A stretch of 59,260 nt of DNA, taken from assembly GCA_041288095.1 (NCBI GenBank), contig JBGGMJ010000126.1, positions 1-59,260 on the forward strand. Direction: 5' to 3'. Each line of letters begins with the position of its first letter. The first letter of the stretch is position 1. A model generated the notes under the pieces. That model did not search any database. It was given only the letters and a program-made list of their open reading frames with translations, and was not told the DNA's origin. Position numbers and translations under genes: made by a program. Below are positions 7,436 to 58,180 of this stretch, one piece after another. Source of the DNA: Myxococcota bacterium. GTDB lineage: Bacteria; Myxococcota; XYA12-FULL-58-9; JALHOP01.

Positions 7436-7462
7436 CAATCGACATGCCGGCTCGGCCATTGC
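7436..7462 (-). promoter_or_regulatory. sigma28-like motif GCAA-N15-GTCGATTG
   Basis: Recurrent intergenic motif, oriented toward the DUF2341 lipoprotein gene. Confidence 0.45.
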
Positions 7463-7542
7463 CCGGAAGGCGCATCGAGACTAAGTTCTTGCGGCTTCGA
7501 TCTTGTCAGTGTCCACACGACGGAATCGCGAGGGAGCTCACC

Positions 7543-9918
7543 GTGGCTGAACGACTTCAAACCGCTGCTGTCTTGGGCGCCGGCTTCATGGGAACGGCGA
7601 TTGCCGCGCATATCGCGGCCCTGGGTGTTCGGGTTCATCTGCTCGACATCGTGCCGCCCGACCTCGCCGAGAAGGACGCGAAAAACAAAGCGGCCCGTAA
7701 CAAGTTCGCCATCGGCGCCATCGACAAGGGCTTGAAGGCGAAGCCCGCCGTCTTCTTCGACGCCGACATCGCCCGCCTCATCACGCCGGGGAACTTCGAA
7801 GACGATATGGGCGTCCTCAAGGACTGCGACCTCGTCATCGAAGCGGTCGTCGAGCGCCTCGACATCAAGAAGAAGCTGTTCGCGAACGTCGCCAAGAACA
7901 TCGGCCCGAACGCCATCGTCGCCTCGAACACCAGCGGCCTCTCGCTCGCGTCGATGATCGAGGACCTGCCGGCCGATGTGCAGAAGCGCTTCGTCATCCT
8001 GCACTTCTTCAGCCCGGTTCGTTACATGCGGCTCCTCGAGATCATCGGGGGCCCGAAGACGGATGCGAAGGTGCTCGAGCGCGCCGTCGCCATCGGTGAG
8101 ATGCTCGGCAAAGGCGTGGTGCACGCCAAGGACACGCCGAACTTCATCGCCAACCGCATCGGCATTCACGACGCCATGGTGGCGATGCACCTGCACGACG
8201 AGATGGGGCTCACCATCGAAGAGGTCGACAAGATCGCCTCGACGCCGATGGGCCGCCCGTCGACGGGTGCCTTCCGCTTGGGTGACTTCGTCGGCATCGA
8301 CGTCATCGGGCACGTCGCCAAGACGTCGTACGACCAGGGCGCGAAGGATCCCGAGCGCGACATGTTCAAGGCGCCCGCCTGGGTCGAGAAGCTGGTGGCG
8401 TCCGGCCGCCACGGCCAGAAGACCGGCGCCGGCTTCTACAAGAAAGAGGGGAAGGACATCATGGTCCTCGACCCCAAGACGCTCGAGTACCGCGCCCAGA
8501 ACAAGGTGCGCTTCGACTCACTCGGCGCCGTCAAGAACATCGAGGAGCCGGGCCCGCGCTTGAAGGCGCTGGTCAACGCGGACGACAAGGCGGCGCAGTT
8601 CGCCTGGCGTCTGCTCGCGCGGACACTGCAATACAGCGCCATGCTGGTCGGCGAGATCGCGGACGACATCGTCAACATCGACCGCGCCATGCGTTGGGGC
8701 TTCAACTGGGACTTGGGGCCGTTCGAGGCGTGGGATGCCATCGGCGTCGAAGAGTCGGTCTCGCGCATGAAGAAGGAAGGCATGAAGGTGCCGGAGTGGG
8801 TCGAGCAGATGCTCGCCTCCGGCCGCAAGTCGTTCTACGCCGATGGTGAGGCCGCTAAAACGTACTTCGACCACAAGGCGAAGAAGAAGGCCGTGGTGCC
8901 TTTCGACGCCAAGCACATTCGCCTGGCGGCGCTCCACGAGGACCCCAAGAAGGTCGTCAAGGAGAACCTCGGCGCGTCGCTGCTCGATCTCGGTGACGGT
9001 GTCCTCTGCATGGAGGTGCACACCAAGATGAACACTCTCGATGGCGACGTGATCACGTTGCTCAACGAGGCCATCGACATCGCAGAGAAGGACTTCCAGG
9101 GCCTCGTCGTCGCCAACGAGGGTCAGCACTTCGGCGCCGGCGCCAACCTGATGCTCGTCTACATGGCGGCTCAGAACAAAGACTGGGCGCAGATCGACAC
9201 CATGGTGCGCGAGCTGCAGAACGTCTACCAGCGCCTCCGCTATAGCAGCATCCCGACCGTGGCGGCGCCGTTCCAATATACCTTCGGCGGTGCCTGCGAG
9301 ATGGTCATGTCGTGCAACGCCGCGGTGGCTCACGCCGAGACGTACATTGGCCTCGTCGAGGTCGGTGTTGGCGTCATCCCGGCGGGCACCGGCTCGCTGC
9401 GCTGTGTGGAGCGCTGGACCGAGCGCGAGATGAACACGCCGGGCGTCGACATCCTGCCGTTCATCGCGCAGGCCTCGCTCAACATCGCGACCGCCAAGGT
9501 GGCCACCGGCGCCGAGGAGGGGAAGCGCCTGCGCTACCTGTCGCCGACCGACGGTATCACCTTGAACCGCGACTATTTGACCTACAACGCCAAGCAACGG
9601 GCGCTGGGCATGGCGCGCTCGGGCTTCCGGCCGCCGCGGCCGAAGGTCTTGAAGGCGGCGGGTTACGACCTCGAAAAGACCATCGGCGCCAGCGTCTACA
9701 ACATGGTGCAAGCTGGTCACGCCACCGAGCACGATGCGCTGGTGGCGCGGAAGGTCGCGCATGTCCTCTGTGGCGGACACGTGGCGCTCGGCGCCGAGCG
9801 CACCGAGCAGGACTATCTCGATCTCGAGCGTGAGGCGTTCGTTTCGCTGTGCGGCGAGGAGAAGACGCAAGCGCGCATCCAGAGCATCCTGATGTCCGGA
9901 AAACCGCTGCGTAACTGA
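7543..9918 (+). CDS. 3-hydroxyacyl-CoA dehydrogenase / enoyl-CoA hydratase (FadN-like)
   Basis: GAGFMG Rossmann motif, IEAVVE, ASNTSG, HFFSP, FIANRIG; C-terminal crotonase domain (FGGACE, GLVEVGVGVIP) ending GKPLRN. GTG start at 7543 after GGGAG. Confidence 0.92.
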   Translation: MAERLQTAAVLGAGFMGTAIAAHIAALGVRVHLLDIVPPDLAEKDAKNKAARNKFAIGAIDKGLKAKPAVFFDADIARLITPGNFEDDMGVLKDCDLVIEAVVERLDIKKKLFANVAKNIGPNAIVASNTSGLSLASMIEDLPADVQKRFVILHFFSPVRYMRLLEIIGGPKTDAKVLERAVAIGEMLGKGVVHAKDTPNFIANRIGIHDAMVAMHLHDEMGLTIEEVDKIASTPMGRPSTGAFRLGDFVGIDVIGHVAKTSYDQGAKDPERDMFKAPAWVEKLVASGRHGQKTGAGFYKKEGKDIMVLDPKTLEYRAQNKVRFDSLGAVKNIEEPGPRLKALVNADDKAAQFAWRLLARTLQYSAMLVGEIADDIVNIDRAMRWGFNWDLGPFEAWDAIGVEESVSRMKKEGMKVPEWVEQMLASGRKSFYADGEAAKTYFDHKAKKKAVVPFDAKHIRLAALHEDPKKVVKENLGASLLDLGDGVLCMEVHTKMNTLDGDVITLLNEAIDIAEKDFQGLVVANEGQHFGAGANLMLVYMAAQNKDWAQIDTMVRELQNVYQRLRYSSIPTVAAPFQYTFGGACEMVMSCNAAVAHAETYIGLVEVGVGVIPAGTGSLRCVERWTEREMNTPGVDILPFIAQASLNIATAKVATGAEEGKRLRYLSPTDGITLNRDYLTYNAKQRALGMARSGFRPPRPKVLKAAGYDLEKTIGASVYNMVQAGHATEHDALVARKVAHVLCGGHVALGAERTEQDYLDLEREAFVSLCGEEKTQARIQSILMSGKPLRN

Positions 9919-9931
9919 CGCGGAGCACGCG

Positions 9932-10306
9932 ATGGCAACCCCGTTCCATCCGCTGATTCACGAGCTCGCCGAAGACCTCGGCGAGGATCTCGACATGCCG
10001 CAAGACCGGGCCGAGGCCTGGATCACGCGGTTGTCGCAGCACACCGACGGCGAGGAGATCGCGACGCACCTCGCCGTGCTGGCCATGCGCCTCGGCAAGC
10101 AGGGCGCGAGCCGCGCGGCGTCGCAGCTGGTGACCATCGCGATGATCGCCTTCAACGCGGCGGCGGCGGCCAGTGTCGCGACAGCGGCCGGCGTCGAGCT
10201 CAATCAGGCGAAGAAGCTCACCGGCTGGAAGTCCGAGCCCAAGAGCAAGGGTGTCGCCGGGCTCGCGCCGCCGACCTCGGGTGTCGGGCCACGGCGCAAG
10301 AAGTAA
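9932..10306 (+). CDS. Hypothetical protein (124 aa)
   Basis: ATG 13 nt after the fadN stop with GGAG RBS; typical GC3-rich codons. Confidence 0.7.
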   Translation: MATPFHPLIHELAEDLGEDLDMPQDRAEAWITRLSQHTDGEEIATHLAVLAMRLGKQGASRAASQLVTIAMIAFNAAAAASVATAAGVELNQAKKLTGWKSEPKSKGVAGLAPPTSGVGPRRKK

Positions 10307-10324
10307 CGCCGGCTGCGCCTCGGG

Positions 10325-10798
10325 CTAGCCGTTCACCCAGGACATGAACTTCGTCCACATCGAGGCGCGGCTCGTCAGCTCGTTCTGGATGGTCTGGTAG
10401 GCGACGACGCGCTGCTGCGTCGCCTGGTACTGCGTCGTCGCTTGGCGCACGCGGCCCTCGGCTGTGCGCACCTGTTCGCGGTGCTGAGCGATGCCGATGC
10501 CGCCAATGGCCATGTTGATGAGGCCGGGGAGCATGTTGCGGGTGTCGAAGTAGGCGCTCGCCGTCGGGGCCATCGCCTGCAGGTAAGCAAGCTGCTGAGC
10601 CTCTTGCTGATAGATCGCCGCGGCCTGTTGCTGGATGCCTTGAGCTTGCGCCAGGAGCTGGGACGCGGCGGTCAGCTCGTAGTCCTGCACACCGTCCGCT
10701 AGAGCGGCGGTCAAGAGCTGAACGTACTCGTCGTTCTGAACGACGCCATCGTTCGCCAGATACCCCTCAACGAGCTGACTCATTTCGTTGATGAACAC
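10325..10798 (-). CDS. Hypothetical Gln/Ala-rich coiled-coil protein
   Basis: GTG start after GGAGG; two Q-rich helical segments flank a short hydrophobic stretch. Confidence 0.7.
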   Translation of the reverse strand: MFINEMSQLVEGYLANDGVVQNDEYVQLLTAALADGVQDYELTAASQLLAQAQGIQQQAAAIYQQEAQQLAYLQAMAPTASAYFDTRNMLPGLINMAIGGIGIAQHREQVRTAEGRVRQATTQYQATQQRVVAYQTIQNELTSRASMWTKFMSWVNG

Positions 10799-10847
10799 GG
10801 AGCCTCCGACGAGTACGTTATAATAGACAAGCTATCGCGACCCTCTG

Positions 10848-11426
10848 CTAGCGGATGGGGCAGTAGTGCCGTCCGTGGCGGTTCACCGCACCGCTGGTGA
10901 AGAACGCTTCGAAGGCGCTGCAGGGGCGGTAGCCGCGGATCGGGTCACGGCGCCACGGTGAGTACCAGGGGCGGTGATAAACCGGCGGGCCAACGACGAC
11001 GGGCGGGCCGTAGACTGGTGGGCCGTAGATCGGCGGGCCGATCACGACCGGCGGCGCGACCACGACTGGCGGGCCGACGATCACCGGCGGATAGACCGGC
11101 GCGGGATAGACGGGATAGCCGGGCGGGGTGACGACGACGCCACCGGAGACGCCGTTGGGGCCGATGCTGATGGCGCCCGAGAAGTCGCGGGTGTTGCGAT
11201 CCTGCTGCGGGCCAAGGCGCGAGCCAGGACGCGGCGCGCTCGGAGCCTGACGGACGTCGGCTTGTGCAAGCTGGACGCGCGCGGCGCCACGCTCGGCTGG
11301 GGTGATGGGGCTCGCAAGGGCGCTCGACAGCGCGCCGCGACCAGGAAGTTGGCCGGCGCCGGGTACCGTGCCGGCGGCTTGAGACAGACGGGTGCCTTCG
11401 ATCTGCTGTGCAGCGTTCGTGCTCAT
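10848..11426 (-). CDS. Hypothetical Pro/Val-rich repeat protein
   Basis: ATG after GAGG; tandem PP[VI][VIY]xG-type repeats; no signal peptide. Confidence 0.65.
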   Translation of the reverse strand: MSTNAAQQIEGTRLSQAAGTVPGAGQLPGRGALSSALASPITPAERGAARVQLAQADVRQAPSAPRPGSRLGPQQDRNTRDFSGAISIGPNGVSGGVVVTPPGYPVYPAPVYPPVIVGPPVVVAPPVVIGPPIYGPPVYGPPVVVGPPVYHRPWYSPWRRDPIRGYRPCSAFEAFFTSGAVNRHGRHYCPIR

Positions 11427-11466
11427 GTTTGCCCTCGCGCACGGCGCTCCCGTCCGTGCCTGTCGT

Positions 11467-11493
11467 GTATCGACTCGGCGGGGCGGGGGTTGC
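11467..11493 (-). promoter_or_regulatory. sigma28-like motif GCAA-N15-GTCGATAC
   Basis: Recurrent motif 40 nt upstream of the 11426 start. Confidence 0.55.
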
Positions 11494-11634
11494 GCGAGAC
11501 AAACGTGAATTGCGCAGACTTGACGGCACGTTAGCGATCAAGTCCGTTTTAACGTAGGGGGGGCGAAAGCGCACCCTTGGTGTTAACGCAGTTATCGGAT
11601 GGGCAGGGCGTGGGGTGTGTCGAAGTGAGGGATC

Positions 11635-11812
11635 GCGGGGCTTTCGCTCCGGGCACGCCGCAGCCCGATTTGGGGTACACGCCCCATTCTGCGCAGGCCG
11701 TTGCCTGGCGATGACTCGCCGAACGAAACCCGATCCGCACGTCGCGAACCGGGATGCCGGTGGCGCCGTCGTACCCCAAATCGGACTGCGTCGTGTCCTC
11801 ACTACGCCCCGC
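11635..11812 (-). repeat. Structured element copy A (left arm of long inverted repeat; candidate ncRNA or REPIN/MITE-like unit)
   Basis: Its reverse complement is ~85% identical to 11904..12082 by manual alignment. It folds on itself: GCGGGGC/GCCCCGC ends and a CCGATTTGGGGTAC/GTACCCCAAATCGG stem. Confidence 0.85.
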
Positions 11813-11903
11813 TATGCGCTCACTTGCGGGGCTCGGCTTACCCGTCGTCTCTTTCCCTCTCACTCAAAAAGGCGGGGCGGTTTCTTGGGGAATCAGGCGG
11901 ATA

Positions 11904-12082
11904 GTAGGGCGTAGTGAGGACGTGCCGTGGTCCGATCCGGGGTACGACGGCGCCACCGGCATCCCGGTTCGCGGCGTGCGGACAGGTTTTCGCGCGGGCG
12001 AGTCATCGCCGGGCAACGGCATGCGCAGAAAGGGGCGTGTACCCCGGATCGGGCCGCGGCGCGCCCGGAGCGAGAGCCCTAC
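11904..12082 (+). repeat. Structured element copy B (right arm of long inverted repeat; candidate ncRNA or REPIN/MITE-like unit)
   Basis: GTAGGGC...GCCCTAC ends, CCGATCCGGGGTAC/GTACCCCGGATCGG stem, and internal hairpins ACCGG-catc-CCGGT and GGCGA-gtca-TCGCC. Confidence 0.85.
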
Positions 12083-12178
12083 GGTCGCCCCTTGTCGCGA
12101 ACCCCGCCCCGATCTGGACACTGGCCAATCTCTTCCATCGGCGTTAGCTTATTTGCCTTCGCTCAAAAGGAGCTTGCC

Positions 12179-13354: not shown

Positions 13355-14134
13355 CTAGTAGGTGCCAGGAAAGCCGAATGACTTGCCCAGCGCTGCTTCC
13401 ACGGCACGCTGGGTCGCCCAGAAGTGCGGCTCGCGCTCCGGGTCCATGGCGTAGTTGACGAGCACGCAGGTTGCGCGTGCATGACGCAATTCCATGATGG
13501 CGTCGAGTGGCGAGCCATCCGCGGCCGCGGCGAGCGCGCGCGCACACACCGTTTCGAAGGTGCCTTGGAACTGGTCACGCTCGTGCATCGCGGTGACGGA
13601 CGTTTGCCAATCCTGGACCTCACGAGCAATCGTCGACCAGCCCACGGGGCGGGAGTCATGAATCGTGTGGGCGACGCGACCGTCGCGTTCCGCGGCGACG
13701 ATGATCTTGGAAAGGCTCGCGCGAACCTCGCCCACGAGGTCGAACACTGGACCCAAGGCGACGGCGCGGTTGCTCGTCGCGTTGGCGTAACGGAAGGCTG
13801 CGACGACAACCTTATTCAGCTCCAGAAACAGATCGGCGTTGAAGTCGCCGGTGCCGCGTGCCGTCGCTTCGATCTTGGCCAGGATGGCGCGGGCGCGCTC
13901 GATCTTGTGGTCGACGCGTAGCGGAAACGCCTTCGCGACCACCGCTTTTTTCTGCGCCAGCCAATCGACGCCGGCGGATGCGGCAGCGCGGTCGACCTCC
14001 CAGATGTCTCGGTCCGAGACCGGCGTCTTGGTTCGCACATTGGCCTCGAGCTGGGCGATCTTGGCGCGAACTTCGGGCTCGGTGCTCGGTGGGGGCGTGA
14101 CTCTCGAGCGCGTGCAGGGGGGCGAAATCGTCAT
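13355..14134 (-). CDS. Hypothetical alpha-helical protein
   Basis: Open frame converging on fadA. Likely start is ATG 14134 ([10 protein letters not shown]...), 6 nt after a sigma28-like -10 box. Confidence 0.65.
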
Positions 14135-14140
14135 GCCGAT

Positions 14141-14167
14141 GTATCGGCAAGCGGACTCGCGCCGTGC
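14141..14167 (-). promoter_or_regulatory. sigma28-like motif GCAC-N15-GCCGATAC
   Basis: Recurrent motif; the spacing implies a leaderless transcript starting at ATG 14134. Confidence 0.55.
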
Positions 14168-17106: not shown

Positions 17107-17133
17107 GCAACCTGCGCTCCGGCCCGCCGAGAT
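17107..17133 (+). promoter_or_regulatory. sigma28-like motif GCAA-N15-GCCGAGAT
   Basis: Recurrent motif 23 nt upstream of ATG 17157. Confidence 0.5.
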
Positions 17134-17156
17134 TGGCGTCGCACTCGCGAGGCATC

Positions 17157-18119
17157 ATGACATCCGCCGCTCGTTCTCTCCCGCGTCACCCGGTCTCGAC
17201 TTCATCCTTCCCGGCGCGCGGCGTGCCCACCGCCGAAGCGTTGGTTCGCCGTCACGTCCATGGCGCCGAGCTCGCTTGTCGGGAGTGGGGCCGGCCCGGT
17301 CACCCGCTGGTCCTGATGGTGCACGGCCTCAGCGCCAATGCCTTGTCAGCCGAGACCCTAGGGCGCGCGCTGGCGGCTAAGGGCTATCACGTCGTGGCGC
17401 CTGACCTGCGTGGCCGCAATTTGAGCCCCGCGACCGAGCCGGGCTCGCTCGGCTGGCGCACGCACGCCCACGACATGCTGGCCGTGGCCCGGCAAGTGAA
17501 TGGCAGCAAGCCCTTCACGGTCGTTGGTCACTCCATGGGTGCGTATGTCGCCATGGAGATGGCGGTCTTGGCGCGCCACAAGCTCGAACGCGTCGTCTTG
17601 ATCGACGGGCTCGGGCACATCGAGCCCGGCGCCTGGAAAGCGGTCGTCGCCTCGCCCGGACGTCTGGGTAAGGAGTACGCTTCGGCGGACGCGTACGTCG
17701 GCGCGCTCCTCGCGAAGGGCATCCCGCCCGCGTGGGCACGCTCGTTTCGCGAGGACCTCGTGACGCTGGCGAACGGCAAGGTGACGCCTCGTACCAATCG
17801 TGACGCCGTGCTCGAGGATCTCATGTACACGCAGCGGCAGCTGGAGCGCCCCGGCGCCTTCGCACGTCACTACTGGCGCACCCTTCCGGACGCGACGCTC
17901 CTGGTACGCGCGCCGGTGCCGCTGGTGCCGCAGCTCGGTAACATCGTGAGCGAGCGCGACGTGCGTAACTTCAAGGCGCAGCGTCCACGTGTCCGCGTCG
18001 TCGAAGCGCCCGGCACCAATCACTATTCGGTCTTCACCGATGCCGCCGTCGCCAAGATCGTCGTGGCGTTCGTGAAAAAAACTGATACCCAAACGCTGGT
18101 CGGGCAACCTTCAAGGTAG
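17157..18119 (+). CDS. Alpha/beta hydrolase
   Basis: VHG oxyanion motif, APDLRGR, GHSMG nucleophile elbow and C-terminal NHY histidine; Ser/Pro-rich N-terminal extension. Confidence 0.88.
   Translation: MTSAARSLPRHPVSTSSFPARGVPTAEALVRRHVHGAELACREWGRPGHPLVLMVHGLSANALSAETLGRALAAKGYHVVAPDLRGRNLSPATEPGSLGWRTHAHDMLAVARQVNGSKPFTVVGHSMGAYVAMEMAVLARHKLERVVLIDGLGHIEPGAWKAVVASPGRLGKEYASADAYVGALLAKGIPPAWARSFREDLVTLANGKVTPRTNRDAVLEDLMYTQRQLERPGAFARHYWRTLPDATLLVRAPVPLVPQLGNIVSERDVRNFKAQRPRVRVVEAPGTNHYSVFTDAAVAKIVVAFVKKTDTQTLVGQPSR
18082..18110 (+). promoter_or_regulatory. Putative ECF promoter CTGATACCCA-N15-ACCT (autoregulatory, cassette 1)
   Basis: Near-identical copy with the same spacing at 21757..21785. 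Confidence 0.5.
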
Positions 18120-18120
18120 G

Positions 18121-18726
18121 ATGGTCGCCGAAGAGGCGAAAGTAATGCCCACCGCGCACGCTGCCCTGGACGCGCTCGTTGCCGGGCTACAGGCCAGGGA
18201 GCGCTGGGCCGCGCAGGACCTACACGCACGCATGTTCGAGCGCGTGCGTAACTTGGTATGGAGACTCTTGGGCGCTGACCAAGACCACCACGATGTGGTC
18301 AATCAGGTCTTCCTCAATGTCCTGGGCGCCATCGGCACCTTGCGTGACCCGGCGGCCCTCGAGGGATGGGTGCTCGCTATCACGTGCAACACGGTACGCC
18401 GCGAGATTCGCGGTCGGCGGTATCGACGCTTGCTCTTCAAGCCCTTCGCGGCCGCGGACGAGCCGGTCTGTGAGATGCGCCCTGGCGCCAGCGAGCTCCT
18501 GCGCGGCTTCTATGCCGCGGCCCAGCGCCTCGCGACGGAAGAGCGGCTGGTTTTCCTCCTGCACTACGTTGACGGACAGACGCTGGCCGAGGTCGCCCAG
18601 GTGTGTGGTTGCTCTCTCGCGACCGCCAAGCGCCGGCTCGCGCGGGCGAGAACGTCGTTCATGAAGCGGTGCAAGGACTATCCAGGCTTGCGCGCCGCAA
18701 TCGGGGAGCTCCGCGATGAAAACTGA
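18121..18726 (+). CDS. ECF RNA polymerase sigma factor (cassette 1)
   Basis: Region 2 (DVVNQVFL...WVLAIT.N) and region 4 (ERLVFLLHYVDGQTLAEVAQVCGCSLATAKRRL). Confidence 0.92.
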   Translation: MVAEEAKVMPTAHAALDALVAGLQARERWAAQDLHARMFERVRNLVWRLLGADQDHHDVVNQVFLNVLGAIGTLRDPAALEGWVLAITCNTVRREIRGRRYRRLLFKPFAAADEPVCEMRPGASELLRGFYAAAQRLATEERLVFLLHYVDGQTLAEVAQVCGCSLATAKRRLARARTSFMKRCKDYPGLRAAIGELRDEN

Positions 18727-19930
18727 CGACGACGTGCTCCACCGATTGGGTGAGCAAGTACGCGCCGAGCTTGGCGCCGCGCCGGAGCGCGCGTTCCGTC
18801 ATGAAGGAGCCGTGGTCGCGCGGCGCAAGCCACGACGCTGGGTTGCGCTGAGCGCCGTCGGGCTCGCTGCGGCATGCCTGGCAGTGTTTGCGCTCGTCCC
18901 GCGCCTCACGCCTGCGCGCACGTTCTGGGTCGGCGACGTTTCGCGTCCAGGGGTCGTTGGCGCGTGGGTCGATGCTCCCGCGCAAGCGAGCCTGCCCATC
19001 GTCTTCAACGACGGTAGTCGGTTCGAGCTTGGCGCCGACACCGGCGTCCAAGTGCGCAAGGCGAGTCGTTCACGCGTGGAGCTGTCGCTGCGTCGCGGCT
19101 CCGTACGCGCCAGTGTGAAGAGCGCGCAGGCCTGCGTGTGGTCCGTCGAGGCAGGGCCCTACCTCGTCACCGTGACGGGGACGATCTTCACGACGGACTG
19201 GGACGCGAAGGAGCGAATTCTCGAGGTGACCGTGAGCTCGGGCCAAGTGCGGGTGACGGGGCACGGCTTGGACGAGGCTGGAGTCACGCTCACGGGCGGT
19301 CAGAGACTGCGGATCGGTGACCATGGCCCGATGCCGGTGGAGAGCCCACCCGCGGAACCAACCGTACCCTCTGATGCCGGCGCGAGCGACGCAGGTGAGC
19401 CGAAGTTGAATGACGGTGCGCCACAACCGGCAAAGCACGCTGGCCGCAAAGCAGCGATGCGGTCGGAGAGGTGGCTGGCGCTGGCCGACGACGGGAAGTT
19501 CGCGGACGCACACGCGGCGGCGGTGAGCGCCGGCGCCTACGCGGCGGACGAGCTCGCGCGTCAGAAGCCCGACGCCTTGCTCGTCCTCGCAAATCTCGCG
19601 CGCGGTCAACGCGACGCGGACCATGCAACACGGGCCCTCGAGACCTTGCGTCAGCGTCATCCAGGCAGCTCGGCGGCGCACCTCGCCGCCTTCTTGCTCG
19701 GTCGGATCGCCATGGATCTCAAGGATGACCCATCGCTTGCCGCGGTTTGGTTTGAAAGGTACCTCAAAGAAAATGCACAAGGCTCGGTGGCAGAAGAGGC
19801 GCTCGGCCGGCTCATGGACGTGTACGAGAGGTCGGGGCAGACGGATGCTGCGCGACGCACTGCACGCGACTACAGCGAGCGCTACCCTGACGGTTTGTTC
19901 CTCGAGCGGGCCCGAGGGCTCTTGCGATGA
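18716..19930 (+). CDS. FecR-domain anti-sigma/sensor with C-terminal TPR-like region
   Basis: Single TM helix, FecR-like segment (F.DGS...L.RG......V.AG...V.V.GT.F), Pro-rich linker, TPR-like tail (AEEALGR...Y..RYPDG). Overlaps the sigma gene. Confidence 0.85.
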   Translation: MKTDDDVLHRLGEQVRAELGAAPERAFRHEGAVVARRKPRRWVALSAVGLAAACLAVFALVPRLTPARTFWVGDVSRPGVVGAWVDAPAQASLPIVFNDGSRFELGADTGVQVRKASRSRVELSLRRGSVRASVKSAQACVWSVEAGPYLVTVTGTIFTTDWDAKERILEVTVSSGQVRVTGHGLDEAGVTLTGGQRLRIGDHGPMPVESPPAEPTVPSDAGASDAGEPKLNDGAPQPAKHAGRKAAMRSERWLALADDGKFADAHAAAVSAGAYAADELARQKPDALLVLANLARGQRDADHATRALETLRQRHPGSSAAHLAAFLLGRIAMDLKDDPSLAAVWFERYLKENAQGSVAEEALGRLMDVYERSGQTDAARRTARDYSERYPDGLFLERARGLLR

Positions 19931-21792: not shown

Positions 21793-24156
21793 GTGAAGGC
21801 GTTGGCGTTCGTTCTTTTCTTCGCGTCGGTGACTCTGCCGGCTGCGCCCGCACGCGCTAATCTCCCACCCGAAGTCGTGGTTCAGGCGCCCGTCACCGAG
21901 GTGTGGATCGGGCAGTCGGTCGGGCTCGATGCGAGCGGGTCGTTCGATCCCGAAGGTAGTCCCTTGTCCTACACCTGGGACTTTGACGACGGCACCATGG
22001 GAAGCGGCGCCAAGCCGTCGCACGTGTTTGCTCGGGCGCGGCTCCACAACGTGCGCGTCATCGCGAGCGACGGCCTCACGACGGCCGAGGCGCGCATCGA
22101 GATCGTGGTGCTCGCGCCGCCGAGCGCCGCCAAAGCGACGTCGAGCTCGCCCATCGCGTTGGGGTTCGCGGACCGCGAGCTCTGGGTCGCCAACGCCGAC
22201 GCCGGCAGCGTGTCGCTCGTCGAGCTGCGCGTCGGCAACAGGGTCACCGAGCTCCCAGTGGGCGCCTCACCGCGGACCTTGGCGCTCAATGCCGACCACA
22301 CGCGTCTGTACGTTGCGTGCCGAGACAGTGATGCGGTCTGGGCCATCGACACGGCGACGCGGACAGTGATCGGTAGCCGTCGTACGGGAAGCGCTCCGCA
22401 TGGTGTCACTGTCGCCAATGACGGACACGTGCTGGTGAGTCACGAGGCTGGTGGCGAGCTCGTGGTGCTCGACGCCGAGCTCTCGCCGCTCGGTCGCGTC
22501 GCCCTGGCTGACAACCCGCGCGCGCTCGCGAGTGACGCGGATGGCAAGCGCGCCTATGTCACCCACTTTCTCACGCGAGGGTCGGTGGGGAAGGTGACGG
22601 TCGTCGATCTTGCGCACGTATCGATCGAGGCGGTGTTCGAGCTCGCGCACGACCCCGGGCCCGACACGCGCTCCTCGGGACGCGGCTACCCGAACCTGCT
22701 TGGCGCCGTCGCCGTCGCTCCAGCGGGCGACATGCTGTGGATCGGGGGCCTCAAGTCCAACACGGAGCGTGGGCTTTTTCTGGATGGCACCCCCCTCGAT
22801 CCGGAGAATCGCCTGCGCGGTGTGCTCTTGCCGGTCGATCTCACGAGCGGCACCGAGCTCCTCACGCGTCGCATCGACACCAACGACGCCGACAGCGTGT
22901 CCGCCATTGGCTTCTCGCCGAACGGCCGCTACGCGTACCTCGCCCATCAGGGCGCGGGCACGTTATCTGTCTACGACTTACCGCGCATCGCTCTGAACGG
23001 GGGTGGCGACGGCGATACCCCCGCATTCACCGCGCGGGTCGCGGTAGGCGAAGCGCCCAATGGCATCGCGGTGTCGTCCGACGGGCGCCGCGTCTATGTG
23101 GCGAGCTCGTTATCGCGGAGTGTCTTCGTGCTCGACGCGAGCGATCCGCGCAGCCCAACGGTGCTGAGCGAGATTGCGGTGAGCCCGGAGCCGCTTGCGC
23201 CCGCCATTGCGCTCGGCAAGCGGCTCTTCCACCGCAGCACCGAGCCCATGCACTCGGCGCAGAACTACATCGCGTGCGCCTCTTGCCATCCGGATGGCGG
23301 TCAAGACGGCCGGACGTGGGATTTCACCCAGGCCGGCGAAGGTCTGCGTAACACCATCGATCTTCGCGGCCGCGCGGGGCTTGGTCACGGGCCGGTCCAC
23401 TGGACCGCGAACTTCGACGAGATCCAGGACTTCGAGAACGACATTGTGCACGGTTTTGGCGGCGAGGGCTTGGCGCATGACGGCGCGCAGCCGTACCCGC
23501 CCCTGGGGACATCACCAAACGCCGGACGCAGCATCGAGCTCGATGCACTCGCCGCCTACGTGTCGTCGCTCGCGACGTTTCCGAAGACCCCACACCGATC
23601 CAGCGACGGCGCGCTCTCAGAGCCCGCGCGGCGAGGCAAAGCCCTGTTCTACGACCCGACGACCGGATGCGCGGGGTGCCACGCTCCGCCGCGCTTCACT
23701 GACAGTACGCTCACCGCCGATCCGGCCAACTTCGCGCTGCATGACGTCGGCACCTGGACGCCCGCAAGTGGGGAAGGGCGCGGATCGAGCTACGTTGGCT
23801 TCGATGTCCCGACCCTGCTGGGAGTCTTCGCGACGGCTCCCTATCTGCACGACGGCAGCGCACCGACGCTCCGCGATGTTCTGACGAACCGTAACCCGAG
23901 CAACACGCATGGCGTGACCTCGCACTTGAGTCACACGGAGCTCGACGACCTCGTGGCGTTCCTCATGGCGCTCGACGGCCGGCCAGACGAGCTGCCGGAT
24001 GATGTCGTGCCCGAGGAGTCGTCCGCCATCGCGGGCTGCCACGCGACGGCGTCCGCTCCTGGGGTGTGGATCGAGGCGTTGGTTGGAGTGGTGTTCATGC
24101 GCGGCAAGCGCTGGAGGAACAAGCATGCAAGCACATCGCGTAACTCAATGGCTTAG
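21793..24156 (+). CDS. PKD + YVTN beta-propeller + di-heme cytochrome c (peroxidase-like) protein
   Basis: Signal peptide, PKD domain (LDASGSFDPEG..LSYTWDFDDG), YVTN-type repeats, CASCH and CAGCH heme motifs, PTLLG...TAPYLHDGSA, and a GC-hydrophobic-basic tail. Confidence 0.85.
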   Translation: MKALAFVLFFASVTLPAAPARANLPPEVVVQAPVTEVWIGQSVGLDASGSFDPEGSPLSYTWDFDDGTMGSGAKPSHVFARARLHNVRVIASDGLTTAEARIEIVVLAPPSAAKATSSSPIALGFADRELWVANADAGSVSLVELRVGNRVTELPVGASPRTLALNADHTRLYVACRDSDAVWAIDTATRTVIGSRRTGSAPHGVTVANDGHVLVSHEAGGELVVLDAELSPLGRVALADNPRALASDADGKRAYVTHFLTRGSVGKVTVVDLAHVSIEAVFELAHDPGPDTRSSGRGYPNLLGAVAVAPAGDMLWIGGLKSNTERGLFLDGTPLDPENRLRGVLLPVDLTSGTELLTRRIDTNDADSVSAIGFSPNGRYAYLAHQGAGTLSVYDLPRIALNGGGDGDTPAFTARVAVGEAPNGIAVSSDGRRVYVASSLSRSVFVLDASDPRSPTVLSEIAVSPEPLAPAIALGKRLFHRSTEPMHSAQNYIACASCHPDGGQDGRTWDFTQAGEGLRNTIDLRGRAGLGHGPVHWTANFDEIQDFENDIVHGFGGEGLAHDGAQPYPPLGTSPNAGRSIELDALAAYVSSLATFPKTPHRSSDGALSEPARRGKALFYDPTTGCAGCHAPPRFTDSTLTADPANFALHDVGTWTPASGEGRGSSYVGFDVPTLLGVFATAPYLHDGSAPTLRDVLTNRNPSNTHGVTSHLSHTELDDLVAFLMALDGRPDELPDDVVPEESSAIAGCHATASAPGVWIEALVGVVFMRGKRWRNKHASTSRNSMA

Positions 24157-31204: not shown

Positions 31205-31264
31205 GGGGCGGACCGATACCGTTTTTGGCTCGGGTGAGCAACCAGAGTATTCTCCAGGGACCCG

Positions 31265-42138: not shown

Positions 42139-42165
42139 GCAATGTGCGTCGAAACTTGCCGATAG
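42139..42165 (+). promoter_or_regulatory. sigma28-like motif GCAA-N15-GCCGATAG
   Basis: Recurrent motif 10 nt upstream of ATG 42176. Confidence 0.6.
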
Positions 42166-46272: not shown

Positions 46273-46383
46273 GTGCCGGGGGGCGGTGAAACCGGCTCAC
46301 GATCTTTTTCCACGGCTCGCTACGTGCCCGGGCCCTCTGTATATTTCGCGAACGCGTGAGCCGGTTTTGAACCTCGACGACAC
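46273..46383. promoter_or_regulatory. Divergent pair of putative ECF promoters GTGAGCCGGTTT-N11-GxCAC (cassette 3)
   Basis: 13-bp inverted repeat at 46289..46301 / 46355..46367. Each copy is followed by CAC at identical spacing (46381..46383 plus; 46275..46273 minus). Confidence 0.6.
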
Positions 46384-46420
46384 TACTCAGGAGACCGCCG
46401 ATCCGCGGTCGACTGAAGCC

Positions 46421-46912
46421 TTGAAGGTGCTCGATATCGACGTCGTGTTCCGCGAGCAGGCGCGTTTCGTCGCCTGGGTGGCTCTGCGCATTCTCGGGCG
46501 GGACGAAGAAGTCGACGATGTCGTGCAGGAGGTGTTCTTGAGCGCGATGGCTGGCCTCAAGACCCTGCGGGAGCCGGCGGCCGTGAAGGCCTGGCTCAAG
46601 ACGGTCACCGTGCGCACGGCGCGGCGACGCCTCTACAAGCGACGCCTGAAGATGGTATTTCGCCTCGACGACCGGCCGGACGCCGCGGAGCTCGCGAGCG
46701 CCGACGCCAGCCCCGAGGATCAGGCCACTCTGCGCGCCGTGTACGCTATTCTGGATCGAATACCCGTCGAGCAACGCTTGGCGTGGACGCTGCGGCATGT
46801 CGACGGTGAGTCCTTGCCGGCGGTCGCCGCGCTCGTCGGCTGTTCGTTGGCTACTGTCAAACGCCGCATCGCCGCCGCCCAGGAGCGGCTCGACAAGGAG
46901 CTGCGCCCATGA
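46421..46912 (+). CDS. ECF RNA polymerase sigma factor (cassette 3)
   Basis: DDVVQEVFL...L.EP.AV..WL...TVR and region 4 RLAWTLRHVDG.SL..VA..VGCSLATVKRRI; paralogous to cassette 1 sigma. Start uncertain (TTG 46421 or GTG 46427; ORF is open from 46286). Confidence 0.9.
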   Translation: MKVLDIDVVFREQARFVAWVALRILGRDEEVDDVVQEVFLSAMAGLKTLREPAAVKAWLKTVTVRTARRRLYKRRLKMVFRLDDRPDAAELASADASPEDQATLRAVYAILDRIPVEQRLAWTLRHVDGESLPAVAALVGCSLATVKRRIAAAQERLDKELRP

Positions 46913-47910
46913 GCGAGTCTCCAGAGACCCGCGCGCTGCGCGAGAAGATGGCGCTGCGTTGGGACGACCGGCGCCAGGATGCCATCGCGGCCAAGATCGT
47001 CGTCACGCATCGCCGTCGCCGCGTGGTGCGACGCGTCGGTGCGGCGACCGCGGCCATCCTGGTGGTCGCCACGGGTTTTGCCTTGAGCCGCCGCGCCGGC
47101 GGGCCTGAGCAGCAAACCCTCGCCGATGGCTCGACCATCGAGAGACTCGAGAGCGAGACCACGCTTGCCGTGAGCAGCGATGCACCGGGTGAGGTGCGTG
47201 TGAGCCTCGAACGGGGCAGGGCGCGTTTCGCGGTCACCAAGGATCCGAAGCGCGTGTTTCGGGTGCAGTCGGGTGACGTGAGCGTCGTCGTCCTGGGGAC
47301 CGTCTTCGAGGTCGGCCGCGCTGGAGCGCACACCCGCGTGAAGGTGAGCGAGGGACGCGTGCGCGTCACCCGCGGCGAGCTGACGATGCTCTTGGGACCG
47401 GGGGAGGAGCGTGAGCTCGAGACCGTCGCGCCCGCCGCTCCCGATCCAGTCGAGGCTCCCGTGCCGCCGCCCGCGCCCGCACCGCCGGAGCGGACACCCC
47501 CGCCGCTCACGAAGGCCAAAGCGCCGGCCGCGGCCGTACCCACGCTCACCGAGACGTTGTGGGAAGTCGATCGTCTGCGTCTCGCAAAGGACGCCGCCGG
47601 AGCCGCCGAGCTCCTGAAGAAGGCCTTGCGCCGGCACCCGCGCGCCGCGGAGACGCCGCAGGCGACCTTCGTGCTCGGACGCTTGCAGCAGGAGGACCTC
47701 CACGACGCCAAGGCCGCGGCGCGCAGCTTCGCGACGGTGCGCCGGCTCGCGCCGACCTCGCCCATCGCCGAGGATGCGCTGGCGCGTGAGGTCGAGTGCC
47801 TGGTGGCGAGCGGCGATTCCGCTGGCGCTCGGGAGCGGCTTGCGCTTTACGAAGAGGCGTACCCGCGCGGTGCTCACCGCGAGCGCTTGAAAAAGCTCGC
47901 ACCCCGCTGA
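46909..47910 (+). CDS. FecR-domain anti-sigma/sensor with C-terminal TPR-like region
   Basis: TM helix, LADGS...L.RG.ARF.V......F.V.SG...V.VLGT.F.V, Pro linker and AEDALARE...Y...YP.G. ATGA overlap with the sigma gene. Confidence 0.85.
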   Translation: MSESPETRALREKMALRWDDRRQDAIAAKIVVTHRRRRVVRRVGAATAAILVVATGFALSRRAGGPEQQTLADGSTIERLESETTLAVSSDAPGEVRVSLERGRARFAVTKDPKRVFRVQSGDVSVVVLGTVFEVGRAGAHTRVKVSEGRVRVTRGELTMLLGPGEERELETVAPAAPDPVEAPVPPPAPAPPERTPPPLTKAKAPAAAVPTLTETLWEVDRLRLAKDAAGAAELLKKALRRHPRAAETPQATFVLGRLQQEDLHDAKAAARSFATVRRLAPTSPIAEDALAREVECLVASGDSAGARERLALYEEAYPRGAHRERLKKLAPR

Positions 47911-51474: not shown

Positions 51475-51501
51475 GCAACCATTTTGCGTGAACGTCGATA
51501 T
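51475..51501 (+). promoter_or_regulatory. sigma28-like motif GCAA-N15-GTCGATAT
   Basis: Recurrent motif ~90 nt upstream of ATG 51594. Confidence 0.55.
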
Positions 51502-53494: not shown

Positions 53495-53557
53495 GACTCT
53501 TCCCCCTCGGCACAAGCGTAAGTCGTGCGAGCATCACGCGGTAGGGCGCTTCGAGCT

Positions 53558-55039: not shown

Positions 55040-55145
55040 CGACACTCTCCGGGCGGCGGCTCGGACAGTCTATGATCCACGTACCCACATGACCGGACCA
55101 CGGGCTGTCGGATGGTGGTATGGTCGCACAGCCGTTGAGATTTTT

Positions 55146-57953
55146 CTACCGGCAGCTAGCGGAGAGGGTCGCGGTCTTGCCGGCCACGACGTGCGCCGTG
55201 TCCTTCATCTGCTTGCCGTCTGGGCACTCGAATCGCACGGTGTAGTCGCCTTCGTAGACGTCGAGTCGGAGTGGGGTCTCCACCGGCTGCCGTGAGCCGA
55301 TGCGCACCCAAGCCCAAGGCGTTGCGTTCACCGCGAGCGAGCCCCGGCGGAGCTTGATGTCGATGTTCTCGATGGAGCCGTTGCCGACGCGGATCTTGCG
55401 CGTCATGCTGATACCTTCGCGGTCGTTCACGAGGCGTAGCTTTTGCTGGCCGACATCGAGCGCAACCCGCTTGAGCGGAGTGTCCCCGAGCAGGCGCTCA
55501 CCGATGTAGACCTTGAGCGGCACCGACGAGTCGATGCTGACGTAACCCTTGCCGGCGACCTTGGGTGCCTTGAGTCCGTCGACTTCGTCTTCGTCACGCG
55601 TCTCGCGCGACAGGGTCGGCGAGGGCTTGTTTACGAGGGCCGGCCGATCGGACTTGTCCGGGGTGCGGGCTTCCGAGCGTGGGAGCGGCGCTGGCGAAGC
55701 ACCCGCCTTGGGCGCGACGAGCGGCGGCGGTGCGGTCGGAGCAGGGGACAAGGCGCCCGCGGCAGCGACCTTCTCCAGCGTGGCTTCGAAGAAGCGGCGC
55801 TCACCCGGTTCGACGTAGAGTTGATCGGTGCGCGTCGTGTGGCCGGCGAGCTTCAGCTCGACCTTGTGCTGCATCGAGCCGTCGACGCGGACGTCGGTGA
55901 CCGGGGTCGTGCCGCGCTTCTCGCCATCGACCCAGAGCTCGGCGCCCGGCGGCGTCGTCATGATTACGAGCGTTGCTTTCTCTGTGCCCGCTTCAGCGGT
56001 CAGCTCGGCGAACAACGGCTCGGGCACGACCTCTTCCTCGACCTTGGGTAGCGTCTGCTTGACGATGACGTAGCCGTCTTTCACGAACTCGGCTTCGAGC
56101 ATCGCTTCGACGGGGATGCCTTCGCTCACGGTGAACGGCGTACGCGCTCCGTCATAGCGGGCGTTCAGCATATCGGCGCCGAGGCCGTAGAAGATGATGC
56201 GGGCGCCGCGCGGCTCGGAGTCGATGGCCAAGGGGCCCGAGCGCGGTAGCTCCCCAGGCGAGCGGCGATGTGACGCGTAGACCAAGACGATGGCGGCGGC
56301 GATACCGAAGACCAGCACGACCATCGCGATACGCGGCAACCACGGCGTCGCCGGCGGCTCGGGGATGGCGCGCGCTTCGGCGAGCTGGTCGTGTTTGACC
56401 TCGACCATGCCCTCGGCGGCGGCGGGCTGCTGCTGCACCACGAGCTCGGGCACCGCTTGCGTCGCGGTCTGCGATTCGGAGAGGCTGCCTTCCGACTGGC
56501 CCCAATCGCTGTCCGCCTCGCGCTGCAGAGCACGAGCCACGGCGCTGTTGGTGGATTCGCGCGGCTTCGACTCACTGGCTTCCCAGCCGGGAATCTCGCC
56601 GCTCTGCGAGTCGATGGCGATGCTCGCCTCGTTGCCCCAGGCACCGCTGCCGTCACTCTTGCTCTTCGATGTCGACTTGGCGCCGCGGCTCTTCTGGCCA
56701 CTGCCTTCCATGACCGTCTCTTCGCCGGCGAGCGAGGCACGCGAGCTCTTCGAGGGGCGGGATGACGCGCTCTTGGCGGCCTTCGAAGCGGCCAACGCCG
56801 CTGCATGACGTTCACTCACGCTGGTCTCTTCCTGAAGCTCGGACGCCGAGACGCTGACCTCTTCGGCACGCGTGGACGCCTCGGTCGAGCGCGAGCGCGG
56901 CGATGAGCCCCAGTCGTCCTTGGGACGCGAGCCGCTCTTCGAGTCTTTGTCTTTGTCTTTTTTCTTCTTCTTGCCATTCGGCGTGAAGCTCGAGGGGCGG
57001 GTCGCCGGGCCGAGCAACATGTCGTCGGCGAGCTTCTCGGCGAAGAGGTCCTGCATGTACGGACCGAGGCTGGAGGCGCCGGTCGCCTGGCCACGCTTGA
57101 CCAGAAACTTCTCGAGCGCTTCGCGGAGGTCGCCGGCGGTCTGGTAACGATCATCGGGATCGTGAGCGAGCGCCTTCATGAGGATGGCTTCGAACTCGCG
57201 ATCGTACTTCGGGACGATCTCGGAGGGCTTGGTGACTTTGCAGTCGATGACCGCGTGCAGGGTCTCGAGCTCGGTCTCGCGCTTGAAGAGGCGAACGCCG
57301 GTGGTCACCTCGTAGAGGGTGATGCCGAGCGCGAAGATGTCGGTGCGCGCGTCGATGGGGTCGCCGGCGGCCTGCTCGGGCGACATGTACGAGTATTTGC
57401 CCTTGAGGACGCCGATGCGCGTCTCCGCGAGCTTGCCCGAGGCCTTGGCGACGCCGAAGTCGACGATCTTCACGTGGCCGTCGTAGGTCACGAGGATGTT
57501 CTGCGGGCTTACGTCGCGATGGACGATGCCCAGCGGACGCCCGTCAATCGAGGTCTGGCGGTGAGCAATATCGAGGCCGGCGGCCGCGCCCATGATGACC
57601 TGGGCGGCGGGCTCGAGCGGCATGGCCCGACCCCGTGCGACCTCTTGGTTGTAGATGCGCCGCAGGTCTTCGCCGCGCACGTACTCCATGGCGATGTAGT
57701 AGGAGCCCTGGACCCGGCCGATATCGTAGATCTGGGCGATGTTCGGATGAACGAGGTTTGCCGCGATGCGCGCCTCGTCTTGGAACATGTTGATGAAGTC
57801 TTCCTGCTCACCCAGGTGGGGCAGGATGCGCTTGATGCAGACCAGGCGCTCGAATCCGCCAATGCCGGTCTGCTTGGCCAGAAACACCTCGGCCATACCG
57901 CCGGCGGCGATTTTTCGCAGGATCTCGTAGTTACCGAAGCGTTCGGAGGACAT
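55146..57953 (-). CDS. Membrane Ser/Thr protein kinase with PEGA domains
   Basis: IAAGGMAEVF, HPNI, HRDVSPQN, DFGVAK and GKYSYMSPEQ; Ser-rich linker, TM helix and PEGA repeats (S.P.GA....DG...G.TP). Start uncertain (57953 preferred). Confidence 0.93.
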   Translation of the reverse strand: MSSERFGNYEILRKIAAGGMAEVFLAKQTGIGGFERLVCIKRILPHLGEQEDFINMFQDEARIAANLVHPNIAQIYDIGRVQGSYYIAMEYVRGEDLRRIYNQEVARGRAMPLEPAAQVIMGAAAGLDIAHRQTSIDGRPLGIVHRDVSPQNILVTYDGHVKIVDFGVAKASGKLAETRIGVLKGKYSYMSPEQAAGDPIDARTDIFALGITLYEVTTGVRLFKRETELETLHAVIDCKVTKPSEIVPKYDREFEAILMKALAHDPDDRYQTAGDLREALEKFLVKRGQATGASSLGPYMQDLFAEKLADDMLLGPATRPSSFTPNGKKKKKDKDKDSKSGSRPKDDWGSSPRSRSTEASTRAEEVSVSASELQEETSVSERHAAALAASKAAKSASSRPSKSSRASLAGEETVMEGSGQKSRGAKSTSKSKSDGSGAWGNEASIAIDSQSGEIPGWEASESKPRESTNSAVARALQREADSDWGQSEGSLSESQTATQAVPELVVQQQPAAAEGMVEVKHDQLAEARAIPEPPATPWLPRIAMVVLVFGIAAAIVLVYASHRRSPGELPRSGPLAIDSEPRGARIIFYGLGADMLNARYDGARTPFTVSEGIPVEAMLEAEFVKDGYVIVKQTLPKVEEEVVPEPLFAELTAEAGTEKATLVIMTTPPGAELWVDGEKRGTTPVTDVRVDGSMQHKVELKLAGHTTRTDQLYVEPGERRFFEATLEKVAAAGALSPAPTAPPPLVAPKAGASPAPLPRSEARTPDKSDRPALVNKPSPTLSRETRDEDEVDGLKAPKVAGKGYVSIDSSVPLKVYIGERLLGDTPLKRVALDVGQQKLRLVNDREGISMTRKIRVGNGSIENIDIKLRRGSLAVNATPWAWVRIGSRQPVETPLRLDVYEGDYTVRFECPDGKQMKDTAHVVAGKTATLSASCR

Positions 57954-58153
57954 CGGTGTGCTTGAGCGCGAGAGGGAAGCGTTTTTCTGCCGCTTTTTCG
58001 GCTTCTTCGCCTCCTCCTCTTGAACCTGCGACGCTCTAGTCATGTCACACCTGTCTAGGCCTCGCAAAGATGGGGATGGGTGCCTTTCGGGCTCGGTTTC
58101 GGCCTGCAGGCGGTCCTATGAGCGTACACGTACCCATTGTCGTCTTCTTTGAG

Positions 58154-58180
58154 TTATCGGCGACGACGAAAAAGTGTTGC
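58154..58180 (-). promoter_or_regulatory. sigma28-like motif GCAA-N15-GCCGATAA
   Basis: Perfect FliA-type -10 box (GCCGATAA) with 15-nt spacer, oriented toward the kinase gene. Confidence 0.65.

Follow-up and report, generated by a model that had tools for sequence, protein, structure and literature searches.

Large regulons of sigma-28 factors that reach beyond the flagellum are known from Bdellovibrio, Streptomyces and Chlamydia, and the class 3 promoters of the enterobacterial FliA-FlgM system have the consensus TAAA-N15-GCCGATAA, as quoted in the initial annotation of the DNA described here. That DNA is a stretch of 59,260 nt (hereafter the window), the entire contig C126 of a draft Myxococcota genome (G000; 5.85 Mb, 66% G+C, about 90% complete). 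Its intergenic regions, and those of the whole genome, carry a bipartite motif with a -35 box GCAAC and a -10 box GCCGATAA. The motif is probably a promoter read by an alternative sigma factor that belongs to the sigma-28 (FliA/WhiG) family, most likely by a paralog encoded on contig C92 and linked to a secretion system of type III (T3SS). Regulons of this kind are not new, since large non-flagellar sigma-28 regulons are already known.

The attack-phase regulon of FliA in Bdellovibrio bacteriovorus is, by analogy, the nearest described system. There, 140 attack-phase promoters were mapped, and 92 of them carry TTAAG-N16-CCGATA (Karunker et al. 2013, PMC3627812). For WhiG of Streptomyces and the Actinomycetota, the available part of the account gives T(A/C)AA-N16-GCCGATAA, an invariant central CGA and autoregulation (PMC12871210). 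Myxococcales possess a needle-less T3SS (T3SS*), which is described in the accessible text as early-branching and linked to predation (Abby and Rocha 2012, PMC3459982; PMC10849154); within that text, neither account names a sigma factor or a promoter motif.

A bipartite motif in intergenic DNA

Genes of G000 were predicted with an own, simple dicodon-model caller, which yielded 5,061 genes and 6.7% intergenic DNA. The initial annotation had listed seven intergenic sites in the window, all with a spacing of exactly 15 nt and all pointing at the next gene. All seven exist at the positions given for them. They account for seven of the nine matches of the strict pattern GCAM-N15-GYCGAK in the window, where 100 shuffles gave a mean of 2.91 and one of the 100 reached 9. 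The remaining two strict matches, 4166-4190(-) and 23253-23277(-), are coding and score -24.9 and 0.4 bits.

No other intergenic signal in the genome is as strong as the bipartite motif. Among intergenic hexamers, CCGATA, CGATAA, GCCGAT and GATAAC are the four most over-represented, and CCGATA alone is counted 386 times against 131.5 expected. When the spacer is varied from N11 to N20, the intergenic matches across the genome number 23, 14, 23, 14, 104, 57, 19, 16, 25 and 22, while the coding matches show three-base periodicity alone, as expected. The 15-nt spacing is therefore specific, with 16 nt as a minor class: intergenic matches peak at N15 (104), followed by N16 (57), and lie between 14 and 25 elsewhere. 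This agrees with the exact spacing proposed at first.

A weight matrix was built from the intergenic matches, with the consensus cGCAAC-N14/15-GCCGATAA. The columns of its -10 box are G 0.59, C 0.63, C 0.98, G 1.0, A 1.0, T 0.75, A 0.82 and A 0.54. The -10 element GCCGATAA with its invariant CGA core is that of sigma-28 promoters, as is the constant distance of about 15 nt that separates the -35 tetramer from the -10 octamer. The -35 element TAAA(G) of the family is not found; the -35 box is cGCAAC. At N15 from the motif's -10 box, intergenic DNA holds TAAA 0 times, TCAA once and GCAA 43 times, and no enrichment of TAAA- or TCAA-type promoters was found in G000. The -10 box and the 15-16 nt spacer would thus be the sigma-28 family's own, with GCAAC in place of TAAA.

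At a threshold of 14 bits, the matrix finds 416 intergenic and 248 coding sites (1.055 versus 0.045 per kb), where the coding density would predict 17.9 intergenic sites. Restricted to the intergenic segments, the scan finds 386 sites at this threshold, where dinucleotide shuffles of the segments give 15.6. The motif of the initial annotation thus stands out from both the coding and the shuffled background. The spacer is 15 nt in 290 of the sites of at least 14 bits and 16 nt in 122. In the consensus of the sites, conservation is confined to the two boxes, with none outside them.

The sites also behave as promoters would. Of the 416 sites, 396 are directed towards the start of a gene and 17 towards the end of one, and 3 are without a neighbour; this extends to the whole genome the initial remark that the sites point at the next gene. 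The median distance from site to called start is 43.5 nt. Sites occur in 168 of 747 divergent gaps, in 104 of 699 and 97 of 649 tandem gaps, and in 4 of 135 convergent gaps. ATG codons opening reading frames of at least 60 aa are found 13, 20, 22, 9 and 9 times at offsets of 7, 8, 9, 10 and 11 nt past the -10 octamer, compared with 1-4 times at neighbouring offsets. This spike yields 78 candidate leaderless genes genome-wide, so that about a fifth of the promoters may drive leaderless mRNAs, and indirectly it would place the transcription start where sigma-28 promoters have theirs, about 7-9 nt past the -10 box. The motif statistics and the orientation, like the synteny, the co-occurrence and the target properties given below, were observed directly.

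A housekeeping promoter was considered and rejected. None of the 51 tRNA and tmRNA genes carries a site of at least 14 bits within 300 nt upstream, and their upstream regions show promoters of a different type, TTGAC...TAnnnT, as read by eye. Four ribosomal protein genes fell among the site-free control genes. The initial statement that no site precedes housekeeping genes is not strictly true, as panB-panC is preceded by a strong site (17.1 bits).

Candidate sigma factors and the type III secretion cluster

From sequence we infer that the motif is a promoter, which sigma factor reads it and what programme it serves. With at least 32 region-4 matches, G000 encodes many sigma factors. Two paralogs have FliA_WhiG as their best NCBIfam family, at 166.1 and 163.7 bits. 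One of them (C92:35188-36072) has LSKSWTSRLH at the position of the region-4.2 recognition helix, and GLSKSW(T/A)SRLH is identical in all 38 of its C92-type orthologs (48-99% identity). The other (C127:21744-22571) has VTDSRVCQLH, near the solved FliA helix VSESRVSQLH. The helix residues that contact the -35 bases are known from work on sigma-70. In a structure search made for the C92 paralog only, its best solved relatives were FliA and WhiG, the FliA structures among them being 6pmi, 1rp3 and 9wsm. An altered helix together with an altered -35 box, next to a canonical -10 and region-2 side, is what would be expected if the C92 paralog reads GCAAC. The C92 sigma, with LSKSWTSRLH in place of the canonical VSESRVSQLH, would therefore be the most likely reader of the motif. 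The search for FliA and WhiG homologs and the inspection of region 4.2 thus returned two FliA/WhiG-like sigmas, one of them with an altered helix. The sigma-28 assignment of the initial annotation survives in so far as such sigmas are present, with the difference that the best candidate is the T3SS-linked paralog and not a flagellar FliA.

Public annotation of the relatives of the C92 sigma is generic ("sigma-70 family") or an automatic "FliA". Homologs at E <= 1e-45 were found in 118 of 201 genomes sampled across the phylum (117 of 200 without the genome G195).

The C92 sigma is encoded at the end of an operon, after genes for a conserved protein of 185 aa, a TPR protein of 138 aa and a further protein of 159 aa. 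Two tandem sites of 17.9 and 17.1 bits head this operon in G000. Since its own operon begins with the motif, the C92 sigma would be autoregulated. The genes sctJ, L, N, O, Q, R, S and T are grouped in the T3SS cluster at C92:600-24182, and sctU and sctV are located elsewhere; sctV, sctU, sctR and sctJ are single copies in G000. The sctV product scores 851 bits against the SctV model (cut-off 692) and 695 bits against the FlhA model (cut-off 772). In being single-copy and nearer to injectisome than to flagellar models, the genes of the export and sorting core (sctV, U, R, S, T, Q, N, L, J) agree with a non-flagellar T3SS of the Myxococcales type. The motif is also found ahead of the gene that opens the T3SS cluster (15.4 bits), 380 nt upstream of sctV (18.5 bits) and behind the sctU-TPR genes (21.4 bits), and the site upstream of sctV is kept in all four genomes of the genus. 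Through the motif, the C92 sigma would drive its own operon, the T3SS cluster and sctV.

The link between sigma factor and secretion genes recurs in relatives. In 14 of 29 loci of relatives, the sequence coding for the sigma helix falls within the 1 kb upstream of sctJ, and in at least 14 of the 29 genomes the sigma gene is found 0.8-1.8 kb upstream of sctJ on the same strand. In 39 loci from public metagenome-assembled genomes labelled Myxococcota, Bdellovibrionales or Deltaproteobacteria, strong sites recur in many cases about 2 kb upstream of the sigma gene (the operon head) and just downstream of it. Two distant genomes of 9-10 Mb, with sigma identities of 45-46%, have sites of 20.4 and 23.0 bits heading the operon. 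Both share the order site, geneA, TPR, sigma, small gene, sctJ...sctL, sctN...sctQ, sctR. The ancestral layout may thus have had the sigma operon directly upstream of sctJ...sctN...sctQRST.

The neighbourhood on C92 holds further genes. In the genus of G000, an RND efflux operon (C92:24471-33560 (-)), with an outer-membrane factor, two AcrB-type pumps and a membrane-fusion protein, has been inserted so that it separates the sigma operon from the T3SS cluster. Within the cluster, a Kup-type potassium transporter and a GNAT acetyltransferase (C92:6713-8617 and 9523-10041 (-)) are placed between sctQ and the FliK-like and sctO genes. The 185-aa protein encoded first in the sigma operon (C92:37386-37943 (-); L198:17389-17943) has orthologs in 27 of the 39 loci (L008-L046). 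It has a Gly/Ser/Ala-rich middle and a strongly conserved C-terminal helix, and the small TPR (chaperone-like) gene is next to it. A needle or pilus subunit of a T3SS and its TPR chaperone presumably have a similar layout. In a profile search, no solved relative was found for the 185-aa protein as such a subunit (best PDB E = 0.4), and a weak HrpA_pilin match occurred in only one of 20 family members (E = 0.0026).

The abundance of the motif in relatives was counted with the strict pattern GCAAC-N14/15-CCGATA, with the reversed pattern as control. Four genomes of the genus (G000 and G001-G003) have 74-103 matches and 3-4 control matches. In the 22 of 40 relatives whose C92 ortholog is at least 56% identical, the median is 18 (control 3.5); in the 13 relatives that lack an ortholog, it is 2 (control 1). 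The non-flagellate genomes G004, G010 and G015, which have the C92-type paralog only, are enriched (26, 17 and 40 matches), and the flagellate G024, G031, G032 and G038, which lack a C92 ortholog, are not (1, 5, 1 and 0). Motif abundance in relatives thus tracks the C92-type sigma and not flagella. Since the genomes compared are kin, these co-occurrence counts are not a statistical test.

In G000 itself, no flagellin, rod, FliG or FlhA match was found in the roughly 90%-complete assembly, and no late flagellar genes (flagellin, motor, chemotaxis) were found to be driven by the motif there, as they would be for a classical sigma-28 factor. The three same-genus genomes G001-G003 carry a flagellar cluster some 35 kb long, in which a third sigma-28 paralog lies next to flhA; this paralog was not found in the G000 assembly. 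An earlier reading of G000 as a non-flagellate organism was withdrawn, because all three same-genus genomes carry the cluster and G000 is only about 90% complete; the flagellar absence reflects either a missing contig or a recent loss. The flagellar clusters of the relatives were scanned with the -10 box alone, which was too noisy for counts, and only the flagellin promoters were readable. In G002 and G003 these read cTCAAGg-N-GnCGATGA, with a TCAAG-type -35.

Several points weigh against assigning the motif to the C92 sigma, or against the strength of the figures. The contrast between intergenic and coding DNA is partly circular and somewhat inflated, because the matrix was trained on the intergenic sites that it counts; the spacer-length test is free of this circularity. 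The gene boundaries in G000 depend on the simple in-house caller, and the relatives are kin and not independent samples. Neither FliA/WhiG-like paralog reaches the curated cut-off of the FliA_WhiG family (TIGR02479), 189.6 bits. Of 29 genomes, only 9 have a site of at least 12.5 bits at the syntenic position in the gap between sigma gene and sctJ, and the site upstream of sctV was not found at its position in the other 22 loci, beyond the genus. G017 has a C92 ortholog yet shows no enrichment (16 matches versus 14 in the control). Finally, G005, a genome of the same order, has 37 strict matches versus 3 in the control, although no C92-type sigma was detected in it at E <= 1e-20 and only FlgM-linked and flagellar paralogs are present. 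Another paralog may therefore read the same or a similar motif. G005 also has a T3SS, with a 17.7-bit site 103 nt before sctJ.

The motif could accordingly be a sigma-28-type promoter that is read mainly by the C127 paralog, by the flagellar FliA of the same-genus genomes, or by several overlapping factors. Besides G005, this is favoured by the FlgM-family gene that lies 40 nt downstream of the C127 sigma gene (PF04316, 31.2-31.3 bits versus a cut-off of 25). The pair is kept in G001 and G005, and no FlgM-family gene was found beside the C92 paralog. The flagellin promoters of G002 and G003 are close to the motif as well. However, the C127 helix is nearly canonical for FliA, and a TAAA-like -35 box is therefore predicted for it, which with the motif's -10 box is found only 0-1 times in intergenic DNA. 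In addition, the enriched genomes G004, G010 and G015 have no C127-type match at E <= 1e-20 and no flagellar genes, genomes with the flagellar paralog only show no enrichment of the motif, and throughout the phylum the motif keeps its synteny with the C92-type operon. Such an assignment is thus unlikely.

It is far less probable still that the motif belongs to an unrelated member of the sigma-70 family, such as one of the many extracytoplasmic function (ECF) sigma factors. Promoters of ECF factors typically have a -35 box with AAC and a -10 box of the CGTC type. The number of region-4 matches leaves room for such a factor, and the -35 box GCAAC does contain an ECF-like AAC. The -10 box, however, is GCCGATAA and not of the CGTC type, some 400 sites are far beyond usual ECF regulons, and in distant genomes the motif is kept before a FliA-like sigma operon and inside the adjacent T3SS cluster. 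That the motif is no promoter at all, being a transcription-factor operator, a dispersed repeat or a compositional artefact, is scarcely credible given its rigid bipartite spacing, its orientation toward gene starts (396 versus 17), the coupling of start codons at 7-11 nt, the conservation restricted to two boxes and the excess of 23-fold or more over shuffles and coding DNA.

A sigma-28-type factor with a GCAA(C) -35 box and a large, mostly non-flagellar programme, as first proposed, thus remains the probable explanation; the spacing, orientation, tRNA, sigma and orphan tests agree on it.

Target genes and the sites in the window

The targets are rich in proteins without a recognised family. 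A Pfam family at E <= 1e-7 is lacking in 52 of the 60 targets with the best scores outside the window and in 27 of 60 controls (length-matched first genes without a site; Fisher's exact test, p = 2e-6). Signal peptides, by a crude rule, are predicted in 17.3% of 394 targets versus 39.0% of 2,041 controls, and a lipobox in 2.3% versus 11.6%. The initial annotation had called the targets enriched for orphan or effector-like genes: the orphans are borne out but not the effector-like character, and Sec signal peptides are depleted. Compared with controls, the N-termini of the targets contain more Ser, Thr, Pro and Gln and less Asp, Glu, Lys, Phe and Tyr, and beyond the N-terminus the proteins do not differ. 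This bias is compatible with type III secretion signals, although far from diagnostic of them. Only a few targets have an annotation, and these are ordinary enzymes (glutathione peroxidase, homoserine dehydrogenase, amine oxidase, panBC). The regulon would have grown to about 400 promoters in the genus, mostly before lineage-specific proteins without signal peptides, and most likely it expanded about a hundred-fold there.

The sites in the window, scored with the matrix, are the following.

2124-2151 (-): strong site, 17.1 bits, 161 nt upstream of panB (probable start 1962) and heading panB-panC; absent from the initial annotation.
7436-7462 (-): weak site, 4.4 bits, before a DUF2341 protein; T replaces C after GCAA and the -10 box is GTCGATTG.
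11467-11493 (-): strong site, 19.4 bits, before the orphan gene 10848-11426, which has no Pfam family.
11592-11618 (-): second tandem site, 16.6 bits, intergenic, 125 nt further upstream of the same orphan gene; absent from the initial annotation.
14141-14167 (-): moderate site, 12.4 bits, before the orphan gene 13355-14134, whose ATG lies 6 nt past the -10 octamer; candidate leaderless transcript.
17107-17133 (+): strong site, 17.2 bits, before an alpha/beta hydrolase gene (ATG 17157, to 18119).
31193-31219 (+): TAAG-N15-ACCGATAC, proposed as a weaker site, 2.9 bits; not supported.
42139-42165 (+): moderate site, 13.1 bits, before a HlyD-type membrane-fusion protein gene (to 43135).
51475-51501 (+): strong site, 16.7 bits, before an SLT-domain protein gene (51582/51642-53123).
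58154-58180 (-): strong site, 21.0 bits, GCAAC-N14-GCCGATAA, before a PEGA Ser/Thr kinase gene (about 55146-58043).

Of the eight sites originally named, four are strong and two moderate members of the motif set. The site at 7436 is probably not a member judging from its score and boxes, and the TAAG site at 31193 is not supported: -35 boxes of the TAAA or TCAA type occur with the motif's -10 box only 0-1 times in intergenic DNA. The annotations of the targets (DUF2341 protein, orphans, hydrolase, membrane-fusion protein, SLT protein, PEGA kinase) were confirmed by Pfam. The leaderless start suggested at 14134 fits the genome-wide class of about 78 genes, with an offset of 6 nt that is shorter than the modal 8-9 nt.

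At 58154, both boxes are invariant in all four same-genus genomes, while the 3' half of the spacer varies. The 110-nt leader between this promoter and the probable ATG of the kinase (58043-58153 (-); ATG at 58043) is almost invariant in the same four genomes and better conserved than the DNA upstream of the promoter. This conservation suggests a regulatory 5' untranslated region.

The hydrolase gene is followed by genes for an ECF sigma (18121-18726) and a FecR-type anti-sigma (18884-19930), all within 17107-19930 (+). As the ECF/FecR pair directly follows a motif-headed gene, a sigma cascade is possible. A second ECF/FecR pair, at 46367-47910, is without a site.

The panB and panC genes encode pantoate transferase and ligase, and the start of panB is GGAGG-ATG. 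By eye, panB seemingly has two promoters within 1962-2151 (-): the sigma-28-like one at 2124-2151 and a sigma-70-like one, TTGCCG-N18-TATACT, nearer the start codon.

Comparison with known systems

In the study of bacterial predation, it is an open question which substrates the needle-less T3SS of myxobacteria secretes and what turns it on. A tentative answer, more speculative than the promoter assignment itself, is that the C92 sigma is the output of a secretion-coupled checkpoint that derives from the flagellum and was kept by the early-branching needle-less T3SS, with the orphan products as substrates. While the machine is idle, a small partner would hold the sigma factor; this could be the FlgM-like protein or one of two products of the sigma operon, the 159-aa protein and the chaperone-like TPR protein. 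Contact with prey would open the machine, and the partner would be exported or titrated away. The freed sigma would then fire its own operon, the T3SS genes and the roughly 400 promoters in the genus, and the orphan products, without signal peptides and with N-termini rich in Ser, Thr and Pro, would be the long-sought T3SS substrates. In any case, a defined promoter motif is a computational and genetic handle on the needle-less T3SS, and its regulon a list of candidate substrates. For comparison with Myxococcus xanthus, a Cappable-seq map of that species is reported to exist (PMC12288465).

Three elements appear to be new: a sigma-28 subfamily that combines an invariant, altered -35-reading helix with a matching altered -35 box; the conserved position of its gene in the Myxococcota T3SS cluster, including that of large genomes resembling cultured myxobacteria; and the growth of the regulon to about 400 promoters in one uncultured genus. 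The literature searched contains no description of the link between sigma factor, motif and T3SS; the 2005 paper on SigF lay outside the reach of that search. This SigF, an alternative sigma factor of Myxococcus xanthus, is reported in the accessible text of later papers as up-regulated in predation (Ueki, Xu and Inouye 2005, cited in PMC9548883 and PMC10849154). It may be an ortholog of the C92 sigma, although this identity is unconfirmed; if so, a protein of the C92 type is already known genetically. The available parts of PMC9548883 and PMC10849154 give neither a promoter motif nor a T3SS link for SigF, and no search was aimed there.

With the T3SS* of the Myxococcales, the present system shares the phylum and the clustering of sctJ, L, N, O, Q, R, S and T, and the two are likened by their export and sorting genes. 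The gene order of the cluster is common to G000 and the relatives of 9-10 Mb. A precedent for coupling sigma activity to a non-flagellar T3SS, in the manner of FliA-FlgM, is found in Bordetella, where the accessible text describes a T3SS-exported anti-sigma in the BtrS/BtrA system (PMC10732220). There, BtrS is an ECF sigma, whereas the C92 sigma is FliA/WhiG-like.

WhiG, according to the parts of the sources available (PMC12871210; PMC8325347), is likewise a sigma-28-family member that was re-assigned to a non-flagellar programme, in that case sporulation. It is governed by the anti-sigma RsiG, which is armed by cyclic di-GMP, and has small regulons; here, a GCAAC -35 box, a link to a T3SS and a very large regulon are found instead.

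The enterobacterial FliA-FlgM system has in common with the present one the -10 octamer, the 15-nt spacer, the sigma family (as best match) and a FlgM-family gene beside one paralog. It differs in the -35 box, in the region-4.2 helix relative to that of the C92 sigma, and in its targets, which here are non-flagellar, with no flagellar gene found in the assembly.

The regulon of Bdellovibrio FliA comes closest. Both systems share the CCGATA core, a large and mostly non-flagellar programme and many uncharacterised targets. In Bdellovibrio, the factor is the flagellar FliA of a flagellate organism, the -35 box is canonical and T/A-rich, and the transcription starts have been mapped. The system described here has a GCAAC -35 box, its candidate sigma is a separate paralog that is encoded with the T3SS cluster, and it is known from sequence alone. 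By number of promoters, its regulon would be about three to four times that of Bdellovibrio.

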